A stretch of 33,238 nucleotides of DNA from Myxococcota bacterium (GTDB taxonomy: Bacteria > Myxococcota_A > Polyangia > Palsa-1104 > JAEUJZ01): NCBI GenBank assembly GCA_025057315.1, contig JANWXW010000113.1, positions 1-33,238 of the forward strand, given 5' to 3'. Each line of letters begins with the position of its first letter. Position 1 is the stretch's first letter. Positions 352-25,187 of the stretch are shown in pieces. The position numbers were made by a program, and so were the translations under genes. The notes beneath the pieces were generated by a model. The model did not search any database and was not told the origin of the DNA. It saw only the letters and a program-made list of their open reading frames with translations.

Positions 352-2799
<2,448 letters not shown>

Positions 2800-3156: not shown

Positions 3157-3273
3157 GGAGTAGATGCCGGTCTGGGGGGTAGGTCAACTTTTTCCGCCAC
3201 TTTTTTTGGGGCCGTGCCGTTTCCGTCGCTATGTTTAGCCAGTCCTGGTAGCCGCCGCGTTCTCAGGGAGAAA

Positions 3274-4086
3274 ATGAGCCGTATCATTGCCATTGCGAAC
3301 CAGAAAGGAGGCGTGGGCAAGACCACCACCGCGGTGAACCTTGCAGCCGCGCTGGCCCACGAAGGGCACAAGGTACTGGTCGTGGATGCCGATCCACAGG
3401 GCAACGCCACCTCGGGGCTGGGCTTCCCCAAGGGCAGCGTGGAACAAGGGTTGTACCAGGCCCTGATCGATCGGGTGTCGCTGCGCGAGCTGACGCAGCT
3501 TACGCTCCTGCCGACGCTGTGGCTGGTGCCAGCCACAGCGGACCTGGCCGGTGCCGAGATCGAGTTGGTGGGGGAGGAGCGCAGGGAGTGGCGCCTGCAC
3601 GACGCACTGGAGCCGGTGCGCGAGCGCTATGACTACGTGATGATCGACTGCCCGCCGTCGCTGGGGCTGCTCACGCTGAACGCCCTGGTGGCGGCCGATC
3701 GGGTGGTCATCCCCATGCAGTGCGAATACTATGCCCTGGAGGGGTTGTCCCACCTGTGCAGCACCATCGAGCGCGTCCGCGCCGTCTGGAAGCCCCAGCT
3801 CGAAATCGAAGGGATCCTGCTAACCATGGTGGATGGACGGACCAACCTGAGCCAGCAGGTGGAAGGGGAGGTGCGGAGCCACTTTGCCAAGCGCGTCTAC
3901 ACCACCGTCATCCCGCGCAACGTCCGCCTGTCGGAGGCCCCCTCCCATGGCATGCCCATCATCCTGTACGATGCCTCCTCCCGCGGCTCGCAGAGCTACC
4001 AGCAGCTGGCGCGCGAGTTCCTCCAGCGGCAGATCCCGCAGAGCGCCAGCACGCCGACGCGGCGCTTCCCGGCAAGGCTGGTGTAG
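3274..4086 (+). CDS. parA: chromosome partitioning ATPase ParA (Soj)
   Basis: MSRIIAIANQKGGVGKTTTAVNLAAALA deviant Walker A; start at 3274 after AGGGAG (the ORF track's 3214 start adds 20 non-conserved residues). Followed 3 nt later by parB. Confidence 0.9.
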   Translation: MSRIIAIANQKGGVGKTTTAVNLAAALAHEGHKVLVVDADPQGNATSGLGFPKGSVEQGLYQALIDRVSLRELTQLTLLPTLWLVPATADLAGAEIELVGEERREWRLHDALEPVRERYDYVMIDCPPSLGLLTLNALVAADRVVIPMQCEYYALEGLSHLCSTIERVRAVWKPQLEIEGILLTMVDGRTNLSQQVEGEVRSHFAKRVYTTVIPRNVRLSEAPSHGMPIILYDASSRGSQSYQQLAREFLQRQIPQSASTPTRRFPARLV

Positions 4087-4089
4087 CTC

Positions 4090-5013
4090 ATGGACAAGCG
4101 CAAGGCGCTCGGACGCGGGCTAGGGGCGCTCATCCCGACCCTGCCCAGGCCAGAACACACATCGCCGCCAGAAGACGGCCCTGCGCCACCGGGTCGGCGA
4201 GAGTACTTTTTGTGCCCCATTGAGGAAATCGTGCCCTCGGAGCACAACCCGCGGCACCGCCACGACGAGCAGCGGCTGGAGGAGCTGGCGGCCTCGATTC
4301 GCAGCCAGGGCCTGGTGCAGCCCCTGGTGGTGCGGTTGCGCACCCCGGCCGAGCAGAGTGACGGTCGCGGGGCGAGCTTTGCCCTCATTGCGGGGGAGCG
4401 GCGCTGGCGGGCAGCGCAGCGCGCAGGGCTGCGGGAGGTGCCGGTGGTGGTCAAGGAGGTCAGTGCGGCCCGTGCATTTGAGCTGGCGCTCGTCGAGAAC
4501 TTGCAGCGCGAGGACCTCAACGTCATCGAGGAGGCAGAGGCCTATCGGCGGCTGTCGGAGGAGTTCGGCTACACCCAGGAGGAACTGGCGCAGCGGGTGG
4601 GGCGGGCCCGCGAGACGGTGGCCAACGTGCTGCGGTTGTTGCGCCTGCCAGAGCAGGTGCGACAGATGGTGGCCCGAGACGAGCTGTCCATGGGCCACGC
4701 GCGGGCATTGCTCGGGCTGGAGGACGAGGAGGCCATCATCCGCACGGCGCTGCAGGTGACCGCGCGACGCCTGTCGGTGCGGCAGACAGAGCTGCTGGTT
4801 CGTCGAGAGAAGTCCCCACCAGCCGAGGAGCCGCAGCGGGCACCGGACAAGTCGCCCGCCGTGCGCGATGTGGAGGAGCGACTGCAGAAGGCTCTCGGGA
4901 CGCGGGTGACTTTGCTCATGAAGGACGGCCGCAGCGGACGCATCGAGATTCACTTCCACAGCCTCGATGAGCTGGATGGGCTCATCGCGCGGCTGGGCGC
5001 CGCCCCTACTTGA
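4090..5013 (+). CDS. parB: chromosome partitioning protein ParB (Spo0J)
   Basis: ParB box GERRWRAA, HTH region ELAQRVGRARETVANVLRLL, C-terminal dimerisation region. Immediately downstream of parA. Confidence 0.9.
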   Translation: MDKRKALGRGLGALIPTLPRPEHTSPPEDGPAPPGRREYFLCPIEEIVPSEHNPRHRHDEQRLEELAASIRSQGLVQPLVVRLRTPAEQSDGRGASFALIAGERRWRAAQRAGLREVPVVVKEVSAARAFELALVENLQREDLNVIEEAEAYRRLSEEFGYTQEELAQRVGRARETVANVLRLLRLPEQVRQMVARDELSMGHARALLGLEDEEAIIRTALQVTARRLSVRQTELLVRREKSPPAEEPQRAPDKSPAVRDVEERLQKALGTRVTLLMKDGRSGRIEIHFHSLDELDGLIARLGAAPT

Positions 5014-19097: not shown

Positions 19098-19387
19098 GCT
19101 ATCCTCCCTGGGCAGGCCCGGTACTGGCCAAGAATCGGAACATTTTCCTCTGCGCTGCTTTCTCTTGGCAAGACCTTATGTGGGTGTGGGAGCGCTGCAG
19201 TTGTTTTTCTGCCAGGGCCCCAACAACCGCACCGCAAAGCGCCTGATGAGGCCGCCCCCGGGCTTTGCGTTCGCCACCGACGCCAAGGGACATACAGCCC
19301 TGGCCCCACACTTTGACATCGCGCCGTCGGATGAAGTACACGTGCACTGCGCCCGCCGGGCGCATGCATGCGAAGGAAGCCGGAAGC

Positions 19388-19657
19388 ATGAAGCCCCAGC
19401 CCACAGATACCGCCGCAGTCCTTTATGACATCTACTTGCGCGCCTTTGTGCTCGCCAAATTAGGCAGAGAACTCCCCAATACTGCATTTCTTTACCGCCA
19501 GGATGTGCCCCTGTCGCAGGCCGAGTTGCTGGCCGTGGCCCTCGGCGCAGATGATGCCAGCACGTCGGGCAGCTTGCTCGGGCGGGAGGCCCTGCTGGCT
19601 CGCATCGAGGCCCTGCTCGGTGCCCCCGCCGGGGAACCGATGGCCCTGGTCGCATGA
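19388..19657 (+). CDS. hypothetical small protein (89 aa) possibly translationally coupled to the downstream surface-protein gene
   Basis: ATG 19388 after GAAGGAAG. Plausible codon usage. Stop TGA overlaps ATG 19654 (ATGA). Preceded by palindromes CGCATGCATGCG and CACGTG/GTGCAC. Confidence 0.35.
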   Translation: MKPQPTDTAAVLYDIYLRAFVLAKLGRELPNTAFLYRQDVPLSQAELLAVALGADDASTSGSLLGREALLARIEALLGAPAGEPMALVA

Positions 19658-19833
19658 TGGGCCCGTACCAGAGCCCCTGGGGGCCTCCCGCCGCGCTCAT
19701 CCCGCAGGGGAGCGGTGTGCCAGAGGGTCCTGCTCAGGCCCAGCCCGCTGAACCGGCTGACCCCACAGGGCCCGGAATGACCAAACGGTGCGGCGGGCCC
19801 TGCCGGGCCCGACCCTTGCTATCCTGTGCCCCT

Positions 19834-21153
19834 ATGTGCCGTGTTTCCGTGACCGTTCCGGCCGCTCTGGCCGTTCTGCTAGTTGCTTTGCCCTTGCGGG
19901 CCCAGATGTCCACCCCGATGGATGGGAGCGCCGGCACCTGCAGCGGCAGCGTCGGCGGAGCCCCTCTGTCCGGGCAGGTGTTCCTCAACGTCAACGGCAT
20001 CCGGGTCAGCACCGCGGGTGGGGCCGCCGGCGGGGTCTTCAGCCTGTCGGAGTGCGAGTGCAGCACGTCGGACATCTTTTTGGAGTTCATCCTCCAACAG
20101 GCCATTCCCAATGCGCTGGGCGACCTGGGCGCCGCCATGTACATCGGCATCGGCACGGATTGCACGGATCCCACTACGCGCTCGACGAGTTGTAAGGAGA
20201 TCACCCGCGCCGACTACCCTGATGGAAGCGAGTTTAACCTCTCGTTTTCGCTGTTCAAGACCCAGGGACGGGCCTTCTACATCCCCCTGCCGGCCGCGGT
20301 GGTAACCTCGCCGAAGATCGGCGTCAACCCGCCTCCCTTCACCTGCCAGGGCGTGACCTCCTCACGCTCTCTGACCATCTTTCTGGGCGACATTGCGGCC
20401 AGCCCGGCCACCTGCAAGATCCCGCTCCCGGTGCGCACCCTCCTCCCACCCCCGCCTACCGGCGTCACCACCCGCCCGGGCAACCGGGCCGTGTCCGTGC
20501 TCTGGAGCGTGCCCCAGGTCAACGAGGGCGTAGAGCGGTACCAGATCCTATGCCGCGATCGCGCCCGGCCCGATGTGCCCCTTAAGCCAGAGCTGCAGGC
20601 GCGACAGCTTTTTTACTCCACCTGCATCGACCCGGCCGCGCGCCGCCACATTCGGCGGACGAACATCCCTGGCACGGGCGCAACCCTGCCCATCCCTGAC
20701 ATGGCCCGGAGCACCCTGTCGAGCGCGGCACCGTCGCAGCGCGAGCCGCTGGAAACCATGGACATGGGGAGCGCCGACCTGAGCGCCGCGACCGACCCGC
20801 CCGGCTCCGGCGATGCGTTCCGGCGCCTCGACCCGAGGTTCCTCTGCTCGGGCGAGGTGCGCGCAGCCAGCGGGGCCACCCTGGAGTATCGCGTGGACGG
20901 CCTGGACAATGGCCGGCAGTACGAGTTTGTCGTCGTGGCCATCGACTCTTATGGCAACGCCACCCCGTCGCAGCCCGTGCTGGCCAGCCCGCAGCAGACG
21001 CAGAACCTGCTGGAGGCCCTGCACCGCAGCGGCAACTACGCCGGCGGCTTTGGCTGCTCCGCCACCGGGGGCACGGAAGGCCATCTGCCCGGTGCCCTGG
21101 CTGCCCTGTTGTGGTTTGCCTGGACCCGGCGCCGACGGGGGCCAGCCTCATGA
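19834..21153 (+). CDS. cell-surface protein with fibronectin type III-like domain and MYXO-CTERM-type C-terminal sorting signal
   Basis: Sec signal MCRVSVTVPAALAVLLVALPLRAQ from ATG 19834 (alternative in-frame starts 19777 and 19654). FN3-like segment (…YEFVVVAIDSYGNATPSQP…). C-terminus GGFGCSATGG…LPGALAALLWFAWTRRRRG resembles MYXO-CTERM (Cys motif, hydrophobic helix, Arg cluster). Confidence 0.65.
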   Translation: MCRVSVTVPAALAVLLVALPLRAQMSTPMDGSAGTCSGSVGGAPLSGQVFLNVNGIRVSTAGGAAGGVFSLSECECSTSDIFLEFILQQAIPNALGDLGAAMYIGIGTDCTDPTTRSTSCKEITRADYPDGSEFNLSFSLFKTQGRAFYIPLPAAVVTSPKIGVNPPPFTCQGVTSSRSLTIFLGDIAASPATCKIPLPVRTLLPPPPTGVTTRPGNRAVSVLWSVPQVNEGVERYQILCRDRARPDVPLKPELQARQLFYSTCIDPAARRHIRRTNIPGTGATLPIPDMARSTLSSAAPSQREPLETMDMGSADLSAATDPPGSGDAFRRLDPRFLCSGEVRAASGATLEYRVDGLDNGRQYEFVVVAIDSYGNATPSQPVLASPQQTQNLLEALHRSGNYAGGFGCSATGGTEGHLPGALAALLWFAWTRRRRGPAS

Positions 21154-22061
21154 CAATGAGAGTGGGATTTGTATTGAGCATGATGGCGGTCCTGACAGCG
21201 GCCCCGGCGCGGGCCGAGTCACCGCAGCGCTTCGCCCTGGAGGTCAAGTTCGGTCCCTACCGTCCCGACATGGACGCCTCGCCGGGCCTGAGCCGGCCGG
21301 TGTTCTCGGATCTGCTCAACCCGCCCGATGCCGCTCGTGGCGATCGCCTCTACCCTGGGCTGCTCACGCAGGTGGAGCTGGACTATCAATTTCTCCATCG
21401 TGTTGGCATCTTGGGCGTCGGCCTGAGCGTCGGCTACCACCGGCGCTCGGCCCCGCAGCTGCGCTACTTTCCCGGAGCAATGCTGGCCACCTGCGACATC
21501 CAGGACGAGGTCCTCACAGCCTCCGACGGCGTCAGGCGGCCCTATAAGAAGTATGTGCTGCCGGACGGCAGCGTGGACCGCCAGGGCGCCTGCTTTTCCA
21601 ACGACGAGCACGTGGTCAACGTGCTGCCCCTGTCCGTGCTGCTCGTGTATCGCTTCGACTGGCTGGACAAGCGCTTTGGCGTGCCCCTCATCCCCTACAT
21701 GAAGGCCGGTCTGGCCTACTATCTGTGGTGGTTTGGCAGCAGCAGCGAGTTTGTCGTCCGCAAGGAGGTGGATGAGTCCGGGCAGCTGGTCGAAGATGGC
21801 CCCACCGCCTCGGGTGGCACCTTCGGCTTCGTGCTCCAGCCGGGGCTGGCCATCGATCTGGGCGCCATCGACCGGGCGGCAGCCCGCGTCATGGACAAGG
21901 AGATCGGCCTGAACCGCGTCAGCGCTTTCGTCGAGCTGCACTACGCCCAGATCGACAACTTTGGTCACCCCGCCGAGCGGGACGTGGGCGGCCAGCGCGG
22001 ACCCACCACCCTCAACCTGTCTGACACCACGCTCAGTGCCGGCCTGGCATTTGAGTTTTAG
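21150..22061 (+). CDS. putative outer-membrane beta-barrel protein
   Basis: ATG 21150 overlaps the preceding stop (ATGA). Signal peptide MTMRVGFVLSMMAVLTAAPARA. Alternating amphipathic beta-strand pattern. C-terminal …LSAGLAFEF ending in Phe (OMP signature). Confidence 0.6.
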   Translation: MTMRVGFVLSMMAVLTAAPARAESPQRFALEVKFGPYRPDMDASPGLSRPVFSDLLNPPDAARGDRLYPGLLTQVELDYQFLHRVGILGVGLSVGYHRRSAPQLRYFPGAMLATCDIQDEVLTASDGVRRPYKKYVLPDGSVDRQGACFSNDEHVVNVLPLSVLLVYRFDWLDKRFGVPLIPYMKAGLAYYLWWFGSSSEFVVRKEVDESGQLVEDGPTASGGTFGFVLQPGLAIDLGAIDRAAARVMDKEIGLNRVSAFVELHYAQIDNFGHPAERDVGGQRGPTTLNLSDTTLSAGLAFEF

Positions 22062-22066
22062 CGCCC

Positions 22067-23686
22067 ATGCCAGGCCCGCTTCACGTCGAGCTCCGCCTGG
22101 TCGACTGGGCCATTCTGGGCATCTACTTTGCCTTCGTCCTGGGCATTGGCTGGCGGCTCAAGCGCCACATGCGCACGGCGGAGGAATTTCTCCTGTCAGG
22201 CCGGTCCATCCCGTCGTGGATCACGGGCCTGGCTTTTCTGTCAGCCAACCTGGGCGCGCTGGAGGTCATGGGCATGGCCGGCAACGGCTACAAGTATGGC
22301 CTCATGACCGCCCACTTCTACTGGGTCGGTGCCATCCCGGCCATGGTCTTTGTCGGCCTCTTTATGATGCCCTTTTATTACGGCTCGCGCGCCCGCTCGG
22401 TGCCCGAATATCTGCGCCTGCGCTTCGACGAGAAGACCCGCGGCCTGAACGCGCTGAGCTTCGCCGTGCTCACGGTGCTCATGTCCGGCATCAACATGTA
22501 TGCCATGGCCATCGTCTTCGAGGTCATGCTCGGCTGGTCGATCCACACCTCGATCCTGATGAGCGCCGCGGTGGTGCTGGCCTATACCTACCTGGGCGGG
22601 CTGACCTCGTCTATCTACAACGAGGTACTGCAGTTCTTCCTTATCGTGTTTGGCTTTGCACCGCTGGCCATCGTCGGTGTAGAGGCCGCCGGCGGCTGGT
22701 CTGGCATTGAGCAGAGGCTGGCCCATACGCCGGGCATGACGGCCATCTGGTCCAGCGCCATGCGCACCACCGACAACCCGATGGGCATCGAGCTGTTTGG
22801 CCTGCTGATGGGCCTGGGCTTCGTGCTCAGCTTTGGCTACTGGTGCACGGACTTCCTCGTGATCCAGCGCGCCATGGCCTCGCGCGACATACCGAGCGCC
22901 CAGCGCACGCCGCTCATCGCCGCCCTGCCCAAGGCCCTGTTTCCGTTCGTGGTGGTGGTGCCAGGGCTGGTGGCCGCTGCGCTCGCCATCGAGCTGCCAG
23001 GCAATCGATACGACTACACCCTGCCGCTGCTGCTCAAGCGGTTTTACCCCACAGGCATGCTCGGCCTGGGTCTGGCGGCGCTGCTGGCCTCGTTCATGAG
23101 CGGCATGGCCGGCAACGTGACGGCCTTTAACACGGTCTGGACCTACGACATTTACCAAGCCTACATCCACCGTGGTGCCAGCGACCAGGCGCTGCTGCGC
23201 ACCGGCCGGCTGGCGACGCTGTGGGGCGTGGTCGCTTCCATTGGTACGGCCTACCTGGTGCTGCGCTTCGACTCGCTGATGGACTACATGCAGCTGCTGT
23301 TTGGCTTCTTCAACGCGCCCATCTTTGCTACTTTTCTTCTGGGCATGTTCTGCAAGCGCACCACGGCCAACGGGGCCTTTTACGGTCTGCTGTGTGGCAT
23401 CTCGGCGGGCATTCTGCACCACGTCGTTCGCTCCGTCGGGTTCATCCGTTACCCGAGCGACATGGCGGCGGCCTTCTACGGCGCCATCGTGGCCTTTGTG
23501 ACCTGCTTTGTTGTCACCGTGCTTGTCTCGCTGGCAGGCCGGGCGCCAGCCGAGGAGGCCCTGCGTGGGTTGGTCTACTCGCTGACGCCGCGGCAGCAGC
23601 TGAGGCTGCCCTGGCACCTGCGCCCCGGAACAGCCGCTGTGGCCGTGCTGGTCGTGGTGGTGCTGCTCAACTGGCGATTTTTCTAG
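22067..23686 (+). CDS. sodium:solute symporter family (SSF) transporter
   Basis: 539 aa, ~13 predicted TM helices, SSF signature regions (GRSIPSWITGLAFLSANLGALEVMGMAGNGYKYG…). 5 nt after the OMP gene. Confidence 0.85.
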   Translation: MPGPLHVELRLVDWAILGIYFAFVLGIGWRLKRHMRTAEEFLLSGRSIPSWITGLAFLSANLGALEVMGMAGNGYKYGLMTAHFYWVGAIPAMVFVGLFMMPFYYGSRARSVPEYLRLRFDEKTRGLNALSFAVLTVLMSGINMYAMAIVFEVMLGWSIHTSILMSAAVVLAYTYLGGLTSSIYNEVLQFFLIVFGFAPLAIVGVEAAGGWSGIEQRLAHTPGMTAIWSSAMRTTDNPMGIELFGLLMGLGFVLSFGYWCTDFLVIQRAMASRDIPSAQRTPLIAALPKALFPFVVVVPGLVAAALAIELPGNRYDYTLPLLLKRFYPTGMLGLGLAALLASFMSGMAGNVTAFNTVWTYDIYQAYIHRGASDQALLRTGRLATLWGVVASIGTAYLVLRFDSLMDYMQLLFGFFNAPIFATFLLGMFCKRTTANGAFYGLLCGISAGILHHVVRSVGFIRYPSDMAAAFYGAIVAFVTCFVVTVLVSLAGRAPAEEALRGLVYSLTPRQQLRLPWHLRPGTAAVAVLVVVVLLNWRFF

Positions 23687-23694
23687 GAGGCTGG

Positions 23695-23943
23695 ATGGGG
23701 CTCGACATCCGCTTGCCCATCGGCCTGATGTTTTGTCTTATGGGGCCGTTGCTGCTCGGGACCGGCCTGGCAGAAGGCAGCCCGCTCAGCGCGCGCACCG
23801 GGGGCGCCATGCTGCTCTTTGGGGGGGTGATGCTGGCGCTGGGGCTGCGCGCTCAGCTTAGCGCCTCCTCATCGGAGGCCTCGTCCTCGTCGGACGCTTC
23901 CGCCTCGTCCTCTTCATCCTCCTCTTCAAACGAGATCACATAG
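23695..23943 (+). CDS. possible small two-TM membrane protein following the symporter (uncertain)
   Basis: TAGGAGG 4 nt before ATG 23695. Two hydrophobic helices. The Ser-rich tail is antisense to the acidic tail of the convergent FHA gene (91-nt overlap), so the 3' part may be non-coding. Confidence 0.3.
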   Translation: MGLDIRLPIGLMFCLMGPLLLGTGLAEGSPLSARTGGAMLLFGGVMLALGLRAQLSASSSEASSSSDASASSSSSSSSNEIT

Positions 23944-24209
23944 TCGCCAATGTAGAGCTTGTCGTCCACGTCCAGCGGCCGCGGCTCCTCGACGCGAAAG
24001 CCGTTGACGAAGGTGCCACAGGTGCTCTTAAGGTCTTCGATCCAGTACTGTTCGTCTTTGACAAACAGGCGCGCGTGCCGCTTGGACACGATGCCGTCGG
24101 GCAGCACGATGTCGTTGGCGCTGCTCAGGCGGCCAATGTTGATCTCGTCCTTTTCGATCTCCAGGCGCCGCTGCTTGCCTTCCTTATGGACGATCCGGAA
24201 GACGGGCAC
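23853..24209 (-). CDS. FHA (forkhead-associated) domain protein with acidic C-terminal tail
   Basis: FHA core (…INIGRLSSANDIVLPDGIVSKRHARLFVKDEQYWIEDLKSTCGTFVNG…). Start reassigned to GTG 24209, which has AGGAGG plus a 6-nt spacer; the ATG at 24236 lacks a Shine-Dalgarno site. C-terminal EEDEEDEAEASDEDEASDEE. Confidence 0.75.
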   Translation of the reverse strand: MPVFRIVHKEGKQRRLEIEKDEINIGRLSSANDIVLPDGIVSKRHARLFVKDEQYWIEDLKSTCGTFVNGFRVEEPRPLDVDDKLYIGDYVISFEEEDEEDEAEASDEDEASDEEALS

Positions 24210-24341
24210 GATAGACCTCCTGCCGCATCGTACCATGGCCTGCCCGAGCCTTCACAGAGGGGGCGTGAAGCGGGATTCACAGGGAGCCCCCGCGCTCAGG
24301 CGACGGTTTCGTTGGCATGCGGGCTGCAATATCCGCCTGCC

Positions 24342-25187
24342 ATGAGAAGCCCGCTGCTTGCCATGGTGATTGCAACGCTGTCCTACATTGCCTCTGGAGC
24401 GGAAGGGGGGCTGCCGCTGGCCCGGGCCAGCGATGCCGCGACCCAGCTTCCCCGGCACCGTCTGGTGGGCGTGATCCTGTCCACCTCGCAGGTCCTGCTC
24501 TGGGACGAGGAAACCGGCGAGTACCAGCTGCGCCGCGTGGGCGATGAGATCATGGGCGGGCGCATCGTGGCCCTGGAGGAGGACATGATCCTGCTGGAGC
24601 GGGGCGAGGAGCGGGAGGAGATCGGCATCATGCCGCCGCCCCAGCGGCGGATCGCAGCGCGGAGGTCGCGGCGTCTGCCGCCGATGATCGTCCAGGTGGC
24701 CCCGGTGGACCAGGAGCCGTCTGCCGCGACGCTGGCGCCGCAGGCGCCGGCCCAGCCAGTGCCCGGCCCGATGCCGCTGCCGGCCCAGCCAGTGCCCGGC
24801 CCGATGCCGCTGCCGATCCAGCCGCAGAGCCCACCCCCCGTGCCCCCTGCGCCACCGGCTGCGGCACCCCAGCTGGGCCCCGTGCAGGCCCTGTCGCGGG
24901 CCCAGCTGGAGCGGACCCTGGAGGCCCTCGGCGGATCGGAGCCACCGGTGGCGCTGGCCCCCCATCCCAGCGGGGGCTACCGCATCCTGGCGGTGCAGGC
25001 CGGCAGCCTGGCCGAGGGGATGGGCCTGCGCCCGGGCGACATCGTGCTGCGCATCGACGGCCGGCCCATCCACTCCGTCGGCGACGCCGTTTCCGCCTAC
25101 GCCTGGCTGCGGCTGACCGACCAGTTCACCATGGACGTGCTCCGCGACGGCCGCTTGCTGACTCTTCGCTACGTGTTCCAGCCGTAG
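24342..25187 (+). CDS. PDZ-domain protein with N-terminal signal/anchor and proline-rich linker (GspC/PilP-like architecture)
   Basis: MRSPLLAMVIATLSYIASGA hydrophobic N-terminus. Pro-rich repeats (QPVPGPMPLP x2). C-terminal PDZ (…GYRILAVQAGSLAEGMGLRPGDIVLRIDGRPIHSVGDA…). Divergent from the FHA gene. Confidence 0.65.
   Translation: MRSPLLAMVIATLSYIASGAEGGLPLARASDAATQLPRHRLVGVILSTSQVLLWDEETGEYQLRRVGDEIMGGRIVALEEDMILLERGEEREEIGIMPPPQRRIAARRSRRLPPMIVQVAPVDQEPSAATLAPQAPAQPVPGPMPLPAQPVPGPMPLPIQPQSPPPVPPAPPAAAPQLGPVQALSRAQLERTLEALGGSEPPVALAPHPSGGYRILAVQAGSLAEGMGLRPGDIVLRIDGRPIHSVGDAVSAYAWLRLTDQFTMDVLRDGRLLTLRYVFQP
24749..24814. repeat. perfect 33-bp tandem duplication (GGCCCAGCCAGTGCCCGGCCCGATGCCGCTGCC x2) inside the PDZ-protein gene
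   Basis: Read directly from the sequence; encodes AQPVPGPMPLP twice. Confidence 0.9.

Follow-up and report, generated by a model that had tools for sequence, protein, structure and literature searches.

The window considered here is the whole stretch of 33,238 nucleotides at positions 1 to 33,238 of contig JANWXW010000113.1 of a Myxococcota bacterium (assembly GCA_025057315.1), and its subject is a run of five plus-strand genes, named g1 to g5 from 5' to 3'. They encode an orphan protein of 89 amino acids (g1, 19388-19657), an FN3/MYXO-CTERM protein with a precursor of 439 amino acids (g2, 19834-21153), a predicted outer-membrane beta-barrel of the MXAN_2562 family with 303 amino acids (g3, 21150-22061), an SGLT/YidK-like Na+/solute symporter of 539 amino acids (g4, 22067-23686) and a mini-protein of 82 amino acids with two predicted transmembrane helices (g5, 23695-23943). 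All five genes are real. An initial annotation, made from the letters of the sequence, had placed its open reading frames where they are indeed present and had read the gene content correctly as an FN3/MYXO-CTERM protein, a barrel, a symporter and small genes; it had also combined the genes into a single operon. Comparison with related loci argues for a different reading, in which the cluster probably consists of three units that are independent of each other and adjacent only in this lineage, namely g1, the surface module g2-g3 and the nutrient uptake unit g4-g5. Among these, g2-g3 appears to be the only unit that is deeply conserved.

The DNA of the window contains approximately 67% G+C. Because long spurious open reading frames are common at this composition, the gene boundaries were set by combining codon-position G+C with the comparison of homologues.

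The surface protein g2 and the barrel g3

The g2 precursor consists of a Sec signal peptide (MCRVSVTVPAALAVLLVALPLRAQ), a cysteine-rich all-beta N-terminal region, an FN3 domain and a MYXO-CTERM signal, which is encoded at approximately 21043-21138. In all 14 aligned homologues, a conserved G-TC-S/T-G motif comes immediately after a short signal peptide, and the same arrangement is obtained for the window when translation begins at ATG 19834, with the signal peptide MCRVSVTVPAALAVLLVALPLRAQ leading straight into MSTPMDGSAGTCSGS. In the alignment, this ATG also coincides with the start called for the g2 homologue in the closest relative, locus L025, and ten cysteine residues are invariant among the homologues. 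Judged from these alignments, ATG 19834 is most likely the start of g2. The start at 19906 in the NCBI record is too late and cuts off the signal peptide.

Both domain assignments of the initial annotation for g2 hold, as the protein reaches 28.9 bits against Pfam fn3 (cut-off 25) and 21.3 bits against the MYXO-CTERM model TIGR03901 (cut-off 20). There is a single FN3 domain, which is interrupted by a variable insertion predicted to be disordered, and in a profile search of the PDB its two halves are matched separately, over profile positions 202-250 and 316-361. The C-terminal tag (...GGFGCSATGGTEGHLPGALAALLWFAWTRRRRGPAS) displays the three parts described for this class of signals (PMC11980579), i.e. 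a motif with an invariant cysteine, a transmembrane helix and an arginine-rich C-terminus. Pfam and NCBIfam searches of g2 identified neither a PA14 domain nor a TIGR04201 cysteine repeat. Against NF045522, the equivalog model of SgmI (MXAN_2561), g2 scores 46.7 bits and matches only model positions 216-304, which are the C-terminal 89. Because this value is below the cut-off of 150 bits, g2 is best described from its sequence as a distant SgmI homologue or as a member of a sister subfamily, and not as an equivalog. The same applies to the scores of ten other partner proteins, which range from 26 to 85 bits and are all below the cut-off. In contrast to SgmI, g2 has the cysteine-rich N-terminal region with its ten invariant cysteines, which NF045522 does not cover. 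Word-indexed searches for g2 homologues returned only two proteins with a single query and four with a 14-sequence profile, so the alignment available for structure prediction was shallow; the predicted structure of g2 is poor, with a predicted local distance difference test (pLDDT) score of 49.9.

Residues 27-303 of g3 match the complete NF040596 model of the MXAN_2562 family (positions 1-208 of 208) with 159.9 bits, well above the cut-off of 100. The features of this family are all present: a signal peptide, which ends in APARA immediately before ESPQ, a transmembrane beta-barrel fold and a C-terminal aromatic residue. The initial annotation had described a barrel ending in Phe, and g3 does end in AFEF, as part of a conserved GLAFEF sequence. 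The predicted model has a pLDDT of 85 and its top structural matches are eight-stranded outer-membrane barrels, which suggests that g3 is a barrel with roughly eight strands and long loops at the surface. It belongs to a longer subfamily of approximately 290-330 amino acids, compared with approximately 255 amino acids in the shorter one, and the difference includes extra loops. An OmpA peptidoglycan-binding domain was not found in g3 with Pfam or NCBIfam. Compared with the N-domains of OmpA and OprF and with OmpW, NspA and PagL, g3 shows an identity of only 13-20% and differs by its much longer loops, a conserved cysteine pair and a strictly conserved upstream partner gene. The NCBI record starts g3 at 21180, which cuts into the signal peptide that all homologues possess; owing to this different start, an exact-sequence search with g3 gave no match.

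A terminator-like hairpin with a short T run lies at 22035-22051 on the plus strand, within the last codons of g3 and just before g4. The scan found five such terminator-like sites against 3.4 expected, and the sequence at 22035-22051 is constrained by the conserved GLAFEF ending of the protein.

Gene order within and around the pair

The linkage of g2 and g3 was followed in 22 genome loci that contain a g3 relative. All of them belong to the Myxococcota, with Polyangia, Nannocystaceae, Kofleriaceae and Nannocystis exedens among them. A g2 homologue was detected by tblastn directly upstream of the barrel gene in 16 of the 22 loci, and in L017, L019, L021 and L022 the upstream gene was recognized by the SgmI-type C-terminal module in NCBIfam. 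Two loci, L010 and L013, end at a contig edge and are uninformative for the pairing. All 20 informative genome loci therefore have an SgmI-like gene immediately before the barrel gene, and so does the window. The ATGA at 21150-21153, in which the stop codon of g2 overlaps the start codon of g3, is present as initially annotated, and an overlap of the form RTGA or TGATG occurs in 15 of the 17 loci examined, the window included. Many of the loci with the overlap also contain GGAGG 8-10 nucleotides upstream. The stop-start overlap is the best-conserved feature of the locus. Translational coupling, which had been proposed for the tightly packed genes in general, thus finds support for g2-g3 but not for g1-g2, which are 176 nucleotides apart.

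In distant g2 homologues at 8319-9896 of L011 and at 8484-9914 of L019, and also in L012 and L014, a CFI-box-CTERM signal (NF041770, 80-86 bits) replaces MYXO-CTERM. Both the FN3 module of the SgmI type and the partnership with a barrel are retained, and the RTGA overlap is kept in L011, L012 and L014, where it was checked. The replacement amounts to a swap of sorting signals inside one gene family.

In the metagenome-assembled genome of a Kofleriaceae member (L018, 3666-5984), a g2-like and a g3-like gene share one reading frame, and their junction (...VRKRRITRARLALAATVAGVLLLPTRAHAQ...) contains neither a stop codon nor a canonical start. Either the two genes are naturally fused here or the single open reading frame results from faulty assembly. 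Its layout is similar to that of an autotransporter and, like the strictly conserved order of passenger before barrel and the conserved coupling, it would fit a g3 dedicated to the export of g2, as an outer-membrane translocator or an assembly factor comparable to those of two-partner secretion, Slam and autotransporter systems. We consider such a role very unlikely, as an eight-stranded barrel is too narrow for a protein channel.

Beyond the pair, the gene order is not maintained. Homologues of MVP, whose gene lies divergently upstream in the window, of g1, the symporter and g5, and of the FHA and PDZ proteins encoded downstream were searched by tblastn within 10 kb of the g2-g3 pair in the 22 genome loci, and none was found. 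The closest relative, L025, whose barrel is 64% identical, has the order g1-g2-g3, but it is flanked upstream by a cytochrome c gene cluster without MVP and downstream, after 436 nucleotides, by a TPR-like gene without a symporter. The next relative, L023 (53% barrel identity), contains neither g1 nor the symporter, has different genes on both sides of the pair and lacks MVP in its vicinity. Reciprocally, g2 or g3 was found in none of 80 metagenome loci that contain a g4 relative. Comparative synteny therefore speaks against the single five-gene module of the initial annotation: the order is kept only for g2-g3 and g4-g5, while g1 is shared only with the nearest relative.

The short gaps within the cluster are as initially described, with 5 nucleotides between g3 and g4 (TAG 22059-22061, ATG 22067) and 8 nucleotides between g4 and g5 (TAG 23684-23686, ATG 23695). 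They belong to the evidence for the view that g1 to g5 make up a single functional operon, the products of which work together and the regulation of which is shared with the divergent MVP gene via palindromic operators. In addition to spacings of -4, 5 and 8 nucleotides from g2 to g5, this view can draw on the location of all five genes on one strand and on a 12-nucleotide perfect palindrome 16 nucleotides upstream of the g1 start. Yet g1 and g2 do not overlap, the palindromes occur at chance frequency and are not conserved, and the constituents of the supposed operon are found apart: MVP, g1 and g4-g5 are missing from other g2-g3 loci, with the exception of g1 in the closest relative, and g2-g3 are missing from the g4-g5 loci. 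A coupled operon of five genes is thus not what the locus displays, considering the gap of 176 nucleotides and an order that is unconserved past g2-g3 and g4-g5. The synteny comparison largely refutes the one-operon view, which we regard as very unlikely.

Two points weigh against the separation into three units. Whether g1 and the neighbouring symporter are conserved could be followed in only two close relatives with flanking sequence, and the gap of 5 nucleotides between g3 and g4 means that g4-g5 are probably co-transcribed with g2-g3, so that a local regulatory or functional link is possible. The short gap makes co-transcription of g3 and g4 plausible in this genome; g4-g5 riding on the g2-g3 transcript would then be a recent arrangement and not a sign of common function.

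The reality of g1 is supported by a reading frame of 93 amino acids at the same position in L025-L027, with 64% identity over 84 amino acids. The nucleotide differences between them are distributed as 24/18/49 over the three codon positions, and 35 codons differ only synonymously. An AAGGAAG ribosome-binding site precedes g1 and both gene callers annotate it. The protein is without a signal peptide and has no match in Pfam, NCBIfam (E values up to 10) or PDB. Searching 1.84 billion representative proteins retrieved its own cluster and two weak hits, which were discarded as low-complexity proteins. From these comparisons, g1 would be an orphan small cytoplasmic protein that is confined to close relatives.

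The overlap of g1 and g2 in an ATGA at 19654/19657, which the initial annotation had reported, is an artefact of using the longest open reading frame. The first 60 codons of that frame have G+C contents of 0.73/0.72/0.73 at the three codon positions and thus no codon periodicity, in contrast to 0.63/0.57/0.85 in the rest of the gene. They cannot be aligned in L025, even though the flanking coding sequences align, and they precede the signal peptide that is common to all homologues. At the same place, L025 has a spacer of 206 nucleotides, the sequence of which is not conserved with the 176 nucleotides of the window (19658-19833). Because this stretch is flat in G+C and not conserved, and because the signal peptides of the homologues place the start of g2 at 19834, g1 and g2 are separated by a non-coding spacer of 176 nucleotides.

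The MVP-like gene (16254-19097, minus strand, 947 amino acids) and g1 are separated by an intergenic region of 290 bp (19098-19387). The region of 735 bp that MVP was initially thought to share with the operon (19098-19833) exists only when g1 is ignored, and as it spans g1, this region and a g1/g2 overlap are mutually exclusive. The proposed 12-nucleotide palindrome CGCATGCATGCG is present at 19361-19372, 16 nucleotides 5' of the g1 start. The second candidate, CACGTG/GTGCAC (CACGTGCAC), is actually located at 19339-19347, one base away from its annotated position, and merely consists of two overlapping hexamers. Perfect palindromes of at least 12 nucleotides occur 15 times in the window, compared with 16.2 ± 4.0 expected from first-order Markov simulations, and the probability of encountering at least one in a stretch of 291 bp is approximately 0.13. 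Moreover, CGCATGCATGCG is single-copy within the window, and no palindrome is found at the aligned position upstream of g1 in L025. With their chance frequency, single occurrence and lack of conservation, the palindromes are not supported as operators. The intergenic region also contains a TTGACA hexamer at 19313-19318, and its sole sigma-70-like match runs along the minus strand from 19171 to 19142. The scan for promoters and terminators remained at background level, and Rfam models gave no match in 18500-24500 except for one sub-threshold snoRNA hit.

The symporter g4 and the mini-protein g5

The initial assignment of g4 as a Na+/solute symporter is well founded, with 183.7 bits against PF00474 (cut-off 22.8) and 252.3 bits against TIGR00813 (cut-off 184). 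The protein is below all substrate-specific cut-offs; the best of these models is PRK10484 (YidK) with 180 versus 401 bits, PutP gives 96 versus 515 bits, and PanF and MctP are not reached either. More than 590 metagenome relatives share 53-63% identity with g4. In the 80 metagenome loci that were compared, recurrent neighbours of the g4 relatives are galactokinase (15 loci), GH3 glycosidase and alpha-amylase genes, which suggests that g4 most likely transports a sugar together with Na+.

A g5 homologue follows the symporter in 55 of the 73 loci that contain enough downstream sequence, mostly 5-21 nucleotides after the stop codon. The protein of 82 amino acids is the small membrane protein of the initial annotation, with two predicted transmembrane helices, and its gene has a GGAGG ribosome-binding site. 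The homologues share the motif M-x-LDIRLPIGLMF...INVNLWWG, and g5 does not belong to any Pfam or NCBIfam family. Its conserved adjacency to the symporter gene points to g5 as a small protein that partners g4, possibly as a subunit, and its family may represent an unnamed family of accessory subunits of symporters. Such a protein family with two transmembrane helices, accompanying SGLT-like symporters in many environmental bacteria, is a modest lead. In the public record, g5 is absent from the NCBI annotation but called in the Logan gene set; adding g5, and moving the g2 start, which is too late in the record and 60 spurious residues too early in the longest open reading frame, would correct the annotation of the locus.

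Some sodium:solute symporters have small accessory membrane proteins, e.g. the small subunit that accompanies the large one in VC_2705-type transporters, or YjcH in the case of ActP. The arrangement of g4 and g5 is comparable, as a bona fide symporter gene is followed within a few nucleotides by the gene for a conserved mini-protein with two transmembrane helices. In contrast to the VC_2705-type, g4 remains below the cut-off of the large-subunit model TIGR03648 (76 versus 320.75 bits) and g5 matches no small-subunit model in Pfam or NCBIfam.

The 3' end of g5 overlaps the convergent gene for an FHA protein of 127 amino acids (23853-24236, minus strand) by 91 nucleotides (23853-23943). The serine-rich tail of g5 is the antisense reading of the acidic tail of the FHA protein, and the third codon positions are common to both genes. 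The tail of g5 is probably non-functional.

The sugar-related neighbours of the g4 family, together with the gap of 5 nucleotides between g3 and g4, also bear on a possible joint function in glycan capture and import, loosely similar to polysaccharide utilization systems, in which g2 would bind a glycan at the surface, g3 would let the sugar through the outer membrane and g4-g5 would import it across the inner membrane. FN3 domains are present in many carbohydrate-active proteins, and the PDB matches of g2 include chitinases and glucanases. Against this, no second instance of the adjacency occurs among 27 pair loci and 80 symporter loci, g3 has a fold class (OmpA, OmpW, PagL and NspA, with eight strands) unlike that of known sugar channels, and neither a glycosidase nor a sugar kinase is encoded near the cluster in the window. 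We therefore attach very little weight to a common glycan pathway. The preferred reading is that g4-g5 would constitute a Na+/sugar symporter and its small accessory protein for nutrient uptake, functionally unlinked to g2-g3.

A proposed role for the pair and its surroundings

The closest known counterparts of g2-g3, and the only functional data, come from Myxococcus xanthus. There, SgmI (MXAN_2561) has been linked to type IV pilus-dependent motility, its gene appears to share a transcript with the barrel gene MXAN_2562, and in a pooled developmental screen an insertion in either gene gave an attachment-like fitness profile, similar to that of mutants in cell-surface adhesion (bioRxiv 10.64898/2026.08.28.747804). 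The window shares with this system the position of the gene for an FN3/MYXO-CTERM protein immediately 5' of a small barrel gene. A second parallel is provided by the outer-membrane exchange receptor pair TraA/TraB of the same species, for which the genes overlap by four bases, the two proteins act together and either mutant has an identical phenotype (PMC3325183). In both cases, a MYXO-CTERM surface protein is followed by the gene of an envelope partner with a four-base overlap. No sequence relationship is detectable, and the PA14 and TIGR04201 regions of TraA and the OmpA domain of TraB are without a match in g2 and g3; the parallel concerns only the architecture and probably the logic of the two systems.

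TraA is exported via Sec and held by its tag in the inner membrane, cleaved by the CPBP-family protein MrtX in a process that depends on the tag cysteines, and displayed by type II secretion (PMC11980579). By analogy, g2 would be exported via Sec, fold with the assistance of disulfide bonds and be retained in the inner membrane by its MYXO-CTERM helix. It would then be lipidated on the cysteine of the tag and cleaved by the myxosortase MrtX, after which type II secretion would bring it to the exterior side of the outer membrane, into which BAM would insert g3 as an eight-stranded barrel. The RTGA overlap would provide coupled and roughly equimolar synthesis of both proteins. Most likely, g3 would serve as an outer-membrane docking partner that holds or positions the FN3 adhesin g2, and this is the simplest role because the barrel is too narrow for a channel and the coupled translation is conserved. 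The output of the pair, extrapolated from the SgmI phenotypes, would be adhesion to cells or to the matrix.

Several observations count against parts of this proposal. The contact between g2 and g3 is suggested by analogy, and the model of g2 is too poor (pLDDT 49.9) to depict it. As g2 fails the SgmI cut-off, transferring the SgmI phenotype to it is an extrapolation. Neither mrtX nor type II secretion system genes were found within the 33-kb window or within about 21 kb of the source contig. The PDZ protein encoded downstream is only partially GspC-like and is not followed by further secretion genes.

This PDZ-domain protein (24075-25187, plus strand) shows a partial likeness to delta-type GspC, with 71 bits versus a cut-off of 150. 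A neighbouring type II secretion operon was considered and rejected, because the match is partial and a thiolase gene comes next; beyond the PDZ gene, this minus-strand thiolase gene is followed by one for a multifunctional MFE-2/SCP2 enzyme.

On a more general level, it is possible, if still rather doubtful, that SgmI-like/MXAN_2562-like pairs are phylum-wide two-component surface complexes, in which a lipoprotein sorted by its C-terminus would dock via its membrane-proximal FN3 domain on a dedicated eight-stranded barrel and the conserved RTGA overlap would ensure a 1:1 ratio. This would generalize the logic of TraA/TraB, with the pair in the window representing a long subfamily that carries a disulfide-rich N-terminal head, and CFI-box-CTERM and MYXO-CTERM would feed one surface-display route in Myxococcota. 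The strict pairing and the overlap also offer a modest lead, a hypothesis for how a factor of S-motility and attachment is retained at the surface. The locus does not contain a new kind of system, as g3 belongs to a curated family and MVP homologues of Myxococcales have been described previously (bioRxiv 10.1101/872010). A false lead is removed by the finding that the bacterial MVP homologue is unlinked to the g1-g5 cluster.

The MVP-like protein itself matches Pfam MVP_shoulder (63.9 bits), Vault_3 and Vault_4 and has a long C-terminal coiled coil. The next gene after it on the same strand encodes an OmpA-family protein (15103-16224, minus strand). Further upstream, the partition genes parA and parB and a Lon protease gene are located at 3214-5013 (plus strand) and 352-2799 (minus strand).

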